A stretch of DNA of 64,000 nucleotides from an uncultured Acidobacteriota bacterium. GTDB taxonomy: Bacteria > Acidobacteriota > Thermoanaerobaculia > Gp7-AA8. The notes under the pieces are model-generated. The model had not been told where the DNA came from. It did no database searches and saw only the letters and a list, made by a program, of their open reading frames with translations. Shown piece after piece: positions 49,903-52,681 of the stretch (position 1 is its first letter; every line of letters begins with the position of its first letter). The position numbers and the translations under genes were made by a program. The DNA is taken from positions 896,001 through 960,000 of the forward strand of contig CAVUKB010000007.1 in assembly GCA_963741955.1 (NCBI GenBank), in the 5' to 3' direction.

Positions 49903-50013
49903 GATTCCACCTCCATGGGGCGACTCCCTTCCATAATTTAATCCCTGTTTACGTTTGGGTCCGGTCATCCGAACCGAGCGGATGTGACGCGGAGGAGAAG
50001 ACGACTGCAGAAT

Positions 50014-50281
50014 GGAGAAGACGAATGCAGAATGCAGAGTTCAGAATGAAGAATTGAGAAGGGGAAAGGGTCGAGCCGGGCGGCGTCGAGCGGGGAGGGG
50101 GGAGGGGAGCGACGAGCGGGGAGCGACGAGCGGAGAGGGGGGGAGGCGAGCGGCGAGGCACGATAAATTCAGGCGCCACCGGCGGGCAATTCAGGCGCCG
50201 CCCGTGAAATGACTCCGTTGTCCGTTCTCCCTTCTCAATTCTGAATTCTGAATTCTGCATTCTGCATTCGTCTTCTCCTCC
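50014..50281. repeat. inverted heptamer (CAGAATG/CATTCTG) arrays around a non-coding core
   Basis: About 50-bp arms at 50014-50065 and 50227-50281 are near-perfect reverse complements. Confidence 0.75.
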
Positions 50282-50414
50282 GGTCCGGATCCTCCGATCC
50301 GCCGCGTGAATCAGATTCGCGCGTGGAAGGGGAGCCTGGGGGAGAAGCGGAGCGAATTCGAAATTCGAAAATCCTGCGGAATACCCGCGCCGCCCGCGCC
50401 GTTACTCGGGGTCC

Positions 50415-50443
50415 TTGACGCGAGAGGGCACGACGGAGATAAT
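50415..50443 (+). promoter_or_regulatory. sigma-70 promoter of tRNA-fMet
   Basis: TTGACG-N17-GATAAT followed by a GC-rich discriminator-like stretch. Confidence 0.65.
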
Positions 50444-50518
50444 CCCCCCTCGCGAGCGCGGCCCGGAATCAGTGGGCACGGCGCGGAAGCAACCGGCACC
50501 GCCGGATGTTGACAGTGA

Positions 50519-50596
<78 letters not shown>

Positions 50597-50609
50597 CTGA
50601 AATCGAGCG

Positions 50610-50636
50610 AACGCCGCCGCGAGGCGGCGTTTCTTT
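50610..50636 (+). terminator. tRNA terminator hairpin (repeated in every array unit)
   Basis: AACGCCGCC-gcga-GGCGGCGTT + T-rich tract; the longest T-run follows the last copy (51544-51548). Confidence 0.75.
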
Positions 50637-50697
50637 GCAAAGAGAGGGTCTCGATCCGGCAGAGTTCGAGAGGGGCTCATAATCCCGCAAGGCGGGA

Positions 50698-50728
<31 letters not shown>

Positions 50729-50829
50729 CTGAAATCGAGCGAACGCCGCCGCGAGGCGGCGTTTCTTTGCAAGGAGAGGGTCTCGATCCGGCAGAGTTCG
50801 AGAAAGGCTCATAATCCCGCAAGGCGGGA

Positions 50830-50860
<31 letters not shown>

Positions 50861-50961
50861 CTGAAATCGAGCGAACGCCGCCGCGAGGCGGCGTTTCTTT
50901 GCAAGGAGAGGGTCTCGATCCGGCAGAGTTCGAGAAAGGCTCATAATCCCGCAAGGCGGGA

Positions 50962-50992
<31 letters not shown>

Positions 50993-51038
50993 CTGAAATC
51001 GAGCGAACGCCGCCGCGAGGCGGCGTTTCCTGTTTCAC

Positions 51039-51332
51039 ATGTCACGGGTGAGCCAACAGCCATACTCGTTGTACGTCCTCTGGAGCGAGCGAGGTCGTCG
51101 GTTCTACATCGGAATCAGCGAAGATCCAGGTCGCCGATTGGAGCAGCACAACTCGGACGAGAACAAGGGATGGACGCGTAGGTACGCCCCCTGGAAGATG
51201 GCTCACGTCGAGAGATTCGAAACGTACGCGGACGCGCGGCGGCGAGAGATCGAATTGAAAGCGCAGAAGAGAGGCTGCGGATTTTTCGAGAAGACCGGCC
51301 TCGACCCCACCGAATTCGGGTTGGGCTCATAA
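51039..51332 (+). CDS. small GIY-YIG nuclease family protein
   Basis: YSLYVL...FYIG, RRLEQHN, ARRREIELK; stop codon is the TAA of GGGCTCATAA. Confidence 0.9.
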   Translation: MSRVSQQPYSLYVLWSERGRRFYIGISEDPGRRLEQHNSDENKGWTRRYAPWKMAHVERFETYADARRREIELKAQKRGCGFFEKTGLDPTEFGLGS

Positions 51333-51347
51333 TCCCGCAAGGCGGGA

Positions 51348-51378
<31 letters not shown>

Positions 51379-51479
51379 CTGAAATCGAGCGAACGCCGCC
51401 GCGAGGCGGCGTTTCTTTGCAAAGAGAGGGTCTCGATCCGGCGGAGTTCGAGAGGGGCTCATAATCCCGCAAGGCGGGA

Positions 51480-51510
<31 letters not shown>

Positions 51511-51625
51511 CTGAAATCGAGCGAACGCCGCCGCGAGGCGGCGTTTTTGTTCTCTTTCTCTGGAAATCCACTCGGCCGACACTTCTCGCTCTGCTACGGG
51601 TCCTGATCTGTGCCAGACTGACAAT

Positions 51626-52681
51626 GTGGACGAACCATTCATCGCGCGGTTGGAGCAGAGCTGCGATACGAAGTGGCATGCCATTGACCGGGCCGCCGAA
51701 CGTACGCAGACGGAATTGCGCCGGATCGGAACGGCTCTCGCGAAGTTCGACGATCCTTCGACCTCAATCATCGCAACAGGTTCGTACGGTCGAGGTGAGG
51801 TGACTGGGAAAAGCGATCTGGACTGGATTCTCCTCATCGACGGCCCTTCGGATCCCAACCATCTCAAGCTTGCTCGCGGTATCGAAAGCGAGTTGGCGAA
51901 GATGGAGATCAAGTCTCCTGGACCGACCGGGACGTTCGGCTCCCTGGTCGACAGCCACGAGCTCGTTCATCACATCGGCGGTACGAGTGATACCAACGAG
52001 AATCTCACGAGGCGGGTGCTCCTCCTGACCGAATCGGTGGCGCTCACTCACCCCGAAATCAGGGAACGGGTGATCCGAAATGTCCTCTCTCGGTACGTAG
52101 TTCACGATCGTCCGATCGCCAGCCGCTCCGACCGCAAACCAAGCCGCATTCCACATTTTCTGTTGAACGATGTGGTGCGCTACTGGCGCACGATTGCTTC
52201 GGATTTCGCTTCGAAGATGTGGGAACGAGCGGGAGAGGGATGGGCGATTCGAAATGTGAAGCTTCGATTCTCCAGGAAACTGATCTTCGTAGCCGGACTT
52301 CTAACGTGCTTTTCCGCCGAAATCCTCAGGCCGGTTCCACTCGAGGGTGCTTCAGACGACGAAGCCTTCTTCGTTCTCCTGGCCGACTTCATCCGTGAAC
52401 AGAGCAACCTGCAGCCACTGGAAAAGCTGGCTCGAACGATTCTTCCGTATCCCGAGACGGCCCTGAAAATTCTGGGGCCGTATGATTTCTTTCTTTCGAT
52501 CCTCGATGACGAATCCGAACGGGAGGTGCTTGAAAAGGTCACCTTCGAGCAGGCGCCATCGAATGAGATCTATAATCGACTTCGGGACCGAAGCCAGGAA
52601 TTCCGTGACGGTATCGAGAGGCTGTTCTTCGACGACGATCCGGATTTGCGGCGACTGATTCGAAAGGTGGGGGTGTTCTGA
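51626..52681 (+). CDS. Pol-beta-like nucleotidyltransferase with helical C-terminal domain
   Basis: TGSYGRGE...SDLD motif; RRVLLLTES, LLNDVVRYWRT, NVKLRFSRK. Confidence 0.85.
   Translation: MDEPFIARLEQSCDTKWHAIDRAAERTQTELRRIGTALAKFDDPSTSIIATGSYGRGEVTGKSDLDWILLIDGPSDPNHLKLARGIESELAKMEIKSPGPTGTFGSLVDSHELVHHIGGTSDTNENLTRRVLLLTESVALTHPEIRERVIRNVLSRYVVHDRPIASRSDRKPSRIPHFLLNDVVRYWRTIASDFASKMWERAGEGWAIRNVKLRFSRKLIFVAGLLTCFSAEILRPVPLEGASDDEAFFVLLADFIREQSNLQPLEKLARTILPYPETALKILGPYDFFLSILDDESEREVLEKVTFEQAPSNEIYNRLRDRSQEFRDGIERLFFDDDPDLRRLIRKVGVF

Follow-up and report, generated by a model that had tools for sequence, protein, structure and literature searches.

Tandem nuclease-hairpin cassettes at the 3′ end of the initiator tRNA gene in an uncultured Acidobacteriota bacterium

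Array of cassette units behind the initiator tRNA gene

The stretch of DNA analysed here, referred to as the window, consists of 64,000 nucleotides from an uncultured Acidobacteriota soil bacterium (assembly GCA_963741955.1, contig CAVUKB010000007.1, positions 896,001 to 960,000 of the forward strand). It carries an initiator-type tRNA-Met(CAT) gene, followed on its 3′ side by five tandem units, four of 132 bp and one of 386 bp. The long unit holds an intact gene for a single-domain GIY-YIG nuclease. The array is a pile-up of one mini-cassette, each unit being either a whole copy or a stump. The mini-cassette is composed of the nuclease gene, which ends in the anticodon-loop sequence GGCTCATAA; a hairpin with an invariant stem, (A)TCCCGC/GCGGGA(T), and a free loop of 3-4 nt; and a copy of the 3′ portion of the local initiator tRNA. 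The features are as follows.

50415..50443, + strand: promoter-like site TTGACG-17-GATAAT, 5′ of the tRNA gene (consensus scan only)
50519..50595, + strand: initiator-type tRNA-Met(CAT) (ARAGORN; Rfam tRNA, 66.9 bits)
50566..50632, + strand: segment B, 67 nt, running from TC through the T arm and the acceptor 3′ strand to a 37-nt tail that holds the terminator hairpin; first of six identical copies
50698-50764, 50830-50896, 50962-51028, 51348-51414 and 51480-51546, + strand: remaining five copies of segment B
50631..50682, + strand: 52-nt 3′ fragment of a gene assigned to a second lineage (FFAKR, one extra base, GLDPAEFERGS-stop)
50763-50814, 50895-50946 and 51413-51464, + strand: further copies of the 52-nt fragment
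50682..50698, + strand: hairpin ATCCCGC-aag-GCGGGAT, which folds as single-stranded DNA (computed)
50814-50830, 50946-50962, 51332-51348 and 51464-51480, + strand: further copies of the hairpin
50633..50764, + strand: short unit 1 (132 bp), made up of gene stump, hairpin and segment B
50765..50896, + strand: short unit 2, differing from unit 1 at 50773 and 50804-50805
50897..51028, + strand: short unit 3, equal to unit 2 in sequence
51029..51414, + strand: long unit (386 bp), holding the intact gene
51039..51332, + strand: gene for a 97-aa single-domain GIY-YIG nuclease (Pfam PF01541, 3.7e-15), ending in three codons, GGC TCA TAA, of anticodon stem-loop sequence
51415..51546, + strand: short unit 5, differing from unit 1 at 51443

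The tRNA gene displays a C1xA72 mismatch and a GGG/CCC anticodon stem, both read off the sequence, which we take to be marks of an initiator tRNA. Among the 52 tRNA genes of the genome, three have a CAT anticodon, and the gene at 50519..50595 alone is of the initiator type. The tRNA's own segment ends at 50632 and the units at 50764, 50896, 51028, 51414 and 51546; beyond these six copies, the tRNA 3′ segment does not recur in the window. On the 5′ side of segment B, every unit carries GGCTCATAA followed by the hairpin TCCCGC-aag-GCGGGA. Apart from the site at 50415..50443, the consensus scan detected no promoter-like site within 50200-51700. Further upstream, on the 5′ side of the tRNA promoter (window 49990-50300), two long inverted A/T-rich repeats (gaatgcagaatgcag... 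and ...ctgcattctgcattc) flank G-rich runs. In the contigs of run X1, word depth is 15 over the piece with the intact gene (window 51000-51352), compared with 7.6-9.1 in unique flanks, which hints weakly at additional copies or at other strains.

A gene stump from a second nuclease lineage

In each of the four 132-bp units, the gene is represented by the last 17 codons of a GIY-YIG gene plus one extra base. In the first unit, positions 50631-50682 read ttctttgcaaagagagggtctcgatccggcagagttcgagaggggctcataa and are followed at 50683-50697 by the 15-nt hairpin tcccgcaaggcggga. The stretch 50647-50682, in frame with the TAA, encodes GLDPAEFERGS-stop, while the tail of the intact gene at 51297-51332 encodes GLDPTEFGLGS-stop; upstream of this, FFAKR matches FFEKT only when one base is skipped. 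A position matrix of the family tail was derived from 120 homologues, with the window's own protein excluded. On this matrix the fragment reaches 30.1 bits, more than the resident tail (27.5), whereas its two other frames reach -4.8 and 0.3. When the 27 non-tRNA bases were shuffled 10,000 times, no shuffle attained 30.1 bits (best 20.2), which rules out chance similarity to the family tail. The letters and the frame thus agree with the original prediction, made from the DNA alone, that the spacers of the short units are GIY-YIG gene tails. The GLDPxEFxxGS-type ending on which that prediction leaned is conserved across the family, with the consensus KAQKGGxGFFxKTGLDPxxFxRGS and a terminal GS in 74 of 120 homologues.

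Seven of the twelve tail codons differ between fragment and resident gene; as had been noticed, many of the changes are synonymous, namely four (GGT/GGC, GAT/GAC, CCG/CCC and GAG/GAA) against three non-synonymous ones. The short units differ from one another at four positions (50773/50905, A>G; 50804-50805/50936-50937, GG>AA; 51443, A>G). All of these fall in the gene-derived segment, while the 67-nt segment from T arm to terminator is identical in all six copies, again in accordance with the earlier description. Long and short units share their last 92 nt without a difference, with 9 mismatches in the 27 bases directly upstream; so abrupt a transition is incompatible with simple decay in situ. 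Against the resident tail the fragment is identical at 27 of 36 positions, and it reaches the same 27 of 36 against the best unrelated family member (L084; loci are referred to by such L numbers). With only 27 of 36 matches beside 92 nt of perfect identity, a different and functional family member is supported as the source of the fragment, rather than decay of the resident copy. Such a parent lineage thus exists. The parent gene, which the original prediction proposed to seek in the genome and in relatives, was not found: tblastn and blastn with the gene, the spacer and the units gave no match outside the array in the 16-contig genome, and none of 97 other right ends matches the fragment at more than 27 of 36 positions.

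All five units share the hairpin loop aag, so that their right ends have been homogenised or are of one origin, and two apparent hits may then be one hit followed by recombination. Of the proposal that at least two element variants have hit this tRNA, the two lineages stand, whereas the separate hits may not. The short units are truncated copies that retain the right end, as proposed, both here and in L047/L049 and L085, and a role of the right end as the cis-acting part is plausible. Rather than arising during insertion, the truncation may stem from a subsequent deletion between two GTTTC microhomologies: GTTTC is present in the terminator tail and in the codons GGT TTC TTT of relatives such as L046, and the short-unit junction of L049 displays an analogous microhomology, CCCCG-AAC.

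Structure of the nuclease

The protein matches PF01541 over residues 9-78 with 56.4 bits (cut-off 22.6). GIY-YIG is its sole Pfam domain, and a second, DNA-binding domain was not detected by Pfam in the 97 residues. Across 38 sequences Y12, G25, R33, H37 and E70 are invariant and Y23 and N38 nearly so, and all seven are present in the window's protein; the conserved Tyr, Tyr, Arg, His/Asn and Glu presumably constitute the GIY-YIG active site. The AlphaFold (AF2) model, with a pLDDT of 84, consists of the GIY-YIG domain and two short C-terminal helices. Its nearest solved relatives are UPF0213 (1ywl, 4e-9) and Slx1 (TM 0.56-0.62, 30-34% identity), and the catalytic domain of I-TevI matches poorly (E 1.3-3.7). 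NCBIfam yields no match for the protein, a protein cluster atlas places it in generic GIY-YIG clusters only, and the genome contains one further GIY-YIG match, in a 643-aa frame.

The cassette family in other loci

A word-indexed search returned 181 homologues, with identities of 56-70% among the 120 matches listed. Species genomes contributed 16 loci (13 from Acidobacteriota and 3 from Verrucomicrobiota, by record title). From 305 metagenomic relatives 80 were taken in, giving 97 loci in total, the window and 96 further ones. Viral contigs contained no relative, and plasmids contained only two weak GIY-YIG matches (34% identity). Almost all members of the family sit at tRNA-fMet 3′ ends, in the two phyla as well as in metagenomes. 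A tRNA-Met(CAT) lies on the gene's strand in 65 of the 97 loci and a tRNA of another type in none. By pattern search, the tRNA-fMet 3′ end is found at most 200 nt 5′ of the first gene copy in 84 of the 93 loci with usable upstream sequence, and in 55 of these 84 the tRNA is intact, at a distance of 5-140 nt (median 45). The pattern missed nine loci, six of which show the tRNA end by eye; two others (L040, L096) have the reverse order, with pseudo-tRNA, gene and intact tRNA following one another, and L044 has a pseudogene and no tRNA.

The right ends are strikingly uniform in design. On the 3′ side of the stop codon, 102 of them follow the form GGCTCATAA-T-CCCGC-n3-4-GCGGG-A-TC-T arm. The stem CCCGC/GCGGG is present in 101, and in the remaining one (L045) it is compensated to CCGGC/GCCGG. 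The loop, of 3 nt in 74 and 4 nt in 28 right ends, varies freely in sequence. Together with the hairpin stem, GGCTCATAAT is nearly invariant as DNA; the third base of its GGC is C in 97/102, the right-end filter having fixed the last five bases of GGCTCATAAT but not GGCTC. Synonymous sites are saturated elsewhere in the gene (median pS 0.78), and the near-invariance of GGCTCATAAT, synonymous positions included, therefore indicates that this piece is constrained as DNA and not only as codons. A tRNA-like RNA fold of the gene's 3′ end was considered and rejected, as by eye it is not conserved between loci.

The tRNA 3′ copy is of local origin: over 30 nt, the neighbouring tRNA is matched exactly by 44 of 66 right ends and with one mismatch by 8 more. 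L033 and the third copy of L049 are hybrids that switch partner within the T arm, with a foreign 5′ and a local 3′ T-stem strand. The duplicated segment varies in length, from 28 nt in L031 to 67 nt with a species-specific terminator in the window, and it extends into the gene's 5′ end in L035, L037, L041 and L075. Eleven right ends carry a second copy of the hairpin in the place of the T loop, with a perfect stem (L041, L046, L051, L062, L064, L083, L089, L092, L102, L114, L115); that of L037 has an imperfect stem and stands outside the eleven. Both T-stem strands still match the local tRNA in these insertions, and the loop of the second hairpin is always different, which suggests repeated, independent insertion.

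Arrays are common. L047/L049 contain two short units and L085 contains four of 78 nt, which keep only the gene end, the hairpin and the tRNA 3′ copy. Copies truncated at the 5′ end lie to the left of full copies, and those truncated at the 3′ end lie at right array edges, which often consist of a copy with the tail and the first 10-40, frequently 23-40, codons only (L035, L037, L041, L066, L069, L070, L072, L073, L075). Several of these breakpoints adjoin CAGCACAA (Q-H-N) codons. In the short unit of L042:1313-1440 (Opitutia), the sequence ahead of the GGCTCATAA-hairpin is copied from the native downstream flank and is no gene stump. At L058:947-990, on the 3′ side of the gene, an inverted cataa-hairpin-T-arm copy is present, and the gene is thus bracketed by inverted repeats. 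We further observed 45-nt tRNA-fMet 3′ fragments that start in the anticodon loop and precede the cassettes in L056/L060, L057, L092 and L117. Such fragments also occur elsewhere in many relatives, and they look like attachment-site scars of integrative islands using the same tRNA gene.

As a whole, the cassette family is rare and patchy, and its copies are frequently in tandem, truncated or broken. We detected the junction signature in 2 of 401 genomes sampled evenly across the phylum, and a close homologue in 1 of 60 relatives. Of the 102 gene copies that no contig end interrupts, 69 are intact; among the other 33 are roughly six start offsets in the test, ten 3′-truncated tandem copies and fifteen frameshifts or stops. 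The intact genes are under purifying selection, with a dN/dS of about 0.17 (58 unsaturated pairs). L070 and L073 are 99.9% identical over 1,548 nt, and L070 has one full copy more; near-identical locus pairs of this kind revealed copy-number differences and no clean element boundary. Within the family of L033, the flank upstream of that locus is not conserved, and only the tRNA matched (37/41 genomes, a count that includes two unpublished genomes, G443 and G466, which no other result uses).

A group I intron in the neighbouring tRNA of four loci

In L058, L074 and L075 the upstream tRNA-fMet is split in its anticodon loop by a group I intron of about 235 nt, with Rfam scores of 49-51 bits (E ~1e-10), at or just under the 50-bit gathering score. 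The same intron is detected by BLAST in L072, bringing the total to four of 97 loci. The intron starts as cataa-TCCCGCnnnGCGGGA-tcggt, and over its first 30-36 nt this exon-intron junction has the same sequence as the right end of every cassette, where it is joined straight to the T arm. The intron core is found 3′ of the gene in no cassette, and in the window (50300-51700) Rfam matches the tRNA only and no intron. A convincing P1 pairing of the intron was not found by hand.

The hairpin and the Ssn nucleases

A nuclease of similar size with a hairpin target has been characterised in Neisseria meningitidis. As described in the main text of that study (PMC11893778), SsnA has 94 amino acids and one GIY-YIG domain. 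It binds its target, the hairpin repeat CGTCATTCCCGCGMAVGCGGGAATCYRG, exclusively when the DNA is single-stranded, and the cut falls a few nucleotides upstream. Binding depends critically on the C that follows the palindrome, and cleavage is influenced by the bases immediately upstream (PMC11893778, main text). The same text reports the hairpin motif near 71% of homologues, with most ssnA genes flanked by such hairpins, and its authors liken the layout of gene and hairpin to an insertion sequence. In the cassette loci, the hairpin lies on both flanks of the gene in arrays and in the four intron-bearing loci.

The hairpin core also occurs apart from the nuclease gene. Within the palindrome GGATCCCGCnnnGCGGGATCC, it is present in 33 copies in this genome and in none of 40 relatives, and a looser form of the core has 0-3 copies in five other host genomes. 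The palindrome GGATCCCGCnnnGCGGGATCC has variable loops and lies inside tandem repeats of 213-435 bp that resemble repetitive extragenic palindromes (REP); its core equals the cassette hairpin and has no TCAT flank (G000:C1:167558-168340, C7:1207208-1207650, C6:27349-28240 and about 30 other places). In several Terriglobia (L048, L074, L075, L096), the terminator hairpin of tRNA-fMet contains (G)GTCCCGC...GCGGGA(CC), the second arm being less clear in L075. Isolated intergenic GATCCCGCnnnGCGGGATC hairpins were observed in other hosts (L127-L130).

Proposed mode of spread

The account that we favour, by a modest balance of probability, is that the cassette is a selfish nuclease-hairpin pair living on host recombination, whose mode of spread we infer. 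By analogy with SsnA, the nuclease and the hairpin would form a cognate Ssn-type pair, in which the protein binds the hairpin in single-stranded DNA and cuts a few bases upstream, in the region of GGCTCATAA and the gene end. The cassette would enter and multiply by way of host recombination, with no transposase, between two nearly universal homology arms, of which the left one is the intact tRNA gene and the right one the duplicated tRNA 3′ segment. Breaks at the hairpin would stimulate copying, unequal exchange and template switching between repeats. In the array described here, a cassette of the second lineage would have lost most of its gene by a deletion reaching from the GTTTC of the terminator tail to that of GGT TTC TTT; the remaining stump would then have been amplified in tandem, and the right ends of all units homogenised. 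As the junction of GGCTCATAA and hairpin is the exon-intron junction, we postulate that the pseudo-tRNA right end is descended from an intron-bearing tRNA-fMet.

A bolder version can be put forward only tentatively, and we consider it unlikely to hold in all its parts. It depicts a minimal transposase-free mobile element in which the site of an Ssn-type nuclease has been fused to the initiator tRNA. The anticodon loop would serve at once as 5′ flank of the hairpin, as the last codons of the gene and as homology anchor, and the duplicated tRNA 3′ half would constitute a nearly universal arm into any bacterium. The site would stem from the tRNA-fMet intron junction, the nuclease would be a parasite directed by the intron, and the core would have seeded the 33 REP-like copies.

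Several observations weigh against the recombination-based account. An empty tRNA-fMet has no such hairpin, so that an Ssn-like enzyme would not cut empty sites and the drive is left unexplained. The intact gene has no promoter of its own by consensus scan and lies behind four terminator hairpins, which makes its expression doubtful. None of the 102 right ends matches the published search sequence (SRM): they have CTC in place of GTC, a spacer longer by one base and, for the most part, shorter loops. In this genome that motif has 67 matches, against 37 on the reversed sequence, and is thus not clearly enriched. No orthologous empty site was recovered. The public contigs of three runs break within the array, and the order and number of the units are neither confirmed nor contradicted by them.

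Alternative explanations

The most serious competitor, though an improbable one, is classical homing. A free-standing endonuclease would cut the double-stranded, unoccupied tRNA-fMet near the anticodon loop and be copied in by double-strand-break repair, possibly together with the group I intron (collaborative homing), and the stumps would be aborted repair copies. Collaborative and intron-less forms of homing are described in part of a review (PMC3984707). The patchy distribution and the many broken copies are consistent with this explanation, as are the intron in the adjacent tRNA of 4/97 loci and the exon-intron junction kept by the right ends; the arrangement of 5′-truncated copies on the left and 3′-truncated copies on the right is what interrupted repair synthesis would leave. 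The nuclease, however, has only 97 residues and no DNA-binding domain, and its fold is nearest to Slx1 and UPF0213, with I-TevI reached only at E>1. Moreover, the neighbouring tRNA is intact and intron-less in 55 loci (stricter upstream count) and in this genome, which has a single initiator tRNA, so that a homing enzyme would cut an essential gene of its own host.

Less probable still is an accretion made by an integrase. On this view the tRNA 3′ segments are attachment sites of integrative elements that target tRNA genes, and a site-specific recombinase supplied in trans has stacked the cassettes, which are remnants of small cargo; the nuclease is not involved. The hybrid T arms suggest crossovers in or near the T loop, and tRNA-fMet is an integration hotspot, with 45-nt 3′ fragments in many relatives that stand directly before the cassettes in L056, L057, L092 and L117. 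Yet Pfam identified no integrase in the eight frames scanned out of 35 listed open reading frames, located downstream at 51.6-63.1 kb; the assignments there were nucleotidyltransferase, Phd antitoxin, IrrE/HTH, DeaD and DDE transposase. The window lacks further copies of the tRNA 3′ segment, and the duplicated segment is of variable extent (28 nt in L031, 67 nt here, into the gene in others). The gene, the hairpin and the anticodon remnant are in addition conserved as one unit across two phyla.

A domesticated function is given a lower probability again. The nuclease and its hairpin would then benefit the host, for instance by keeping recombination or transformation in check at the locus of the initiator tRNA. 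This explanation draws on the main text of PMC11893778, where SsnA modulates transformation and domestication is suggested, and on the purifying selection on the intact genes. It sits poorly with a signature found in only 2 of 401 sampled genomes, with a third of the copies not being intact, and with a copy number that differs between near-identical loci, L070 having one full copy more than L073. Finally, the short units could be old duplicates of the resident gene that changed in situ, a notion which the common hairpin loop and the identical 92-nt right end of all units would suit. It is close to refuted by the 9 of 27 bases that differ right beside 92 identical ones, by the four synonymous changes among seven changed codons, and by a fragment that outscores the resident tail (30.1 against 27.5 bits), which is unexpected for a decaying non-coding copy.

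Implications

If the recombination-based account is true, Ssn nuclease-hairpin pairs, described only recently, are more than scattered repeats: they can also make up a small cassette that spreads horizontally and targets one of the most highly conserved genes of bacteria. It would represent a natural mobile element that uses a single-strand nuclease and borrowed homology, not a transposase or an integrase, and it would link three parasites of tRNA-fMet, namely the group I intron, the nuclease and the integrative islands. The GGCTCATAA-hairpin would provide a defined enzyme-site pair for single-stranded-DNA tools. For annotation, the cassette accounts for arrays of tRNA halves that otherwise resemble assembly errors or pseudogenes.

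Comparison with known systems

Among small selfish GIY-YIG genes, SegB of phages T4 and T6 bears a resemblance, as it lies among tRNA genes and is passed on through recombination that involves the tRNA sequence around it. This phage protein reportedly has an added DNA-binding part and cuts double-stranded DNA. The cassette differs from it in its location on a bacterial chromosome, its bare catalytic domain, its signature hairpin and the duplicated tRNA half. With homing endonucleases of the I-TevI/Seg type it has in common a sporadic distribution and frequent degeneration. The best sequence and fold matches of the protein are UPF0213 (EF2693, BH0048) and Slx1. Slx1 works with Slx4 on branched DNA; UPF0213 has, to our knowledge, no assigned target, and we know of no tie between either family and a tRNA gene or a hairpin repeat.

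I-Ssp6803I is said to belong to another nuclease superfamily and to be encoded inside its intron. The tRNA-fMet intron of this system, as covered in part of a review (PMC3984707), shares with the cassette the same target gene and the same place, the anticodon loop. In contrast, the window contains no such intron, and most cassettes lie beside intron-less tRNA genes.

In the literature searched, which for the Ssn nucleases comprised the main text of the paper, we found no description of a cassette joined to an initiator tRNA, with its stop codon in the anticodon-loop remnant, a presumed intron-junction origin and arrays of stumps. The nuclease family and the hairpin principle are already published; on the basis of these searches, the tRNA-joined cassette is apparently undescribed.

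A close likeness exists to the Ssn nucleases and their NTS hairpins, as presented in that main text (PMC11893778). The cassette site, CTCATAA-TCCCGC-nnn-GCGGGA-TC, shares the identical 6-bp stem TCCCGC/GCGGGA, a TCAT on the 5′ side and the C after the palindrome. Both proteins are single-domain GIY-YIG nucleases of similar length (97 aa here, 94 in SsnA), and the Tyr-Tyr-Glu spacing Y12-Y23-E70 of the cassette protein equals that of the residues mutated in SsnA, Y6-Y17-E64. An oriented hairpin beside the gene is common to both; here it follows directly 3′ of the stop in 102 right ends. The two systems differ in their relation to tRNA, a word with 0 occurrences in the main text of PMC11893778. 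In the cassette, the hairpin is joined to a remnant of the tRNA-fMet anticodon loop and to a copy of the tRNA 3′ half, and the stop codon of the nuclease gene lies inside this remnant.
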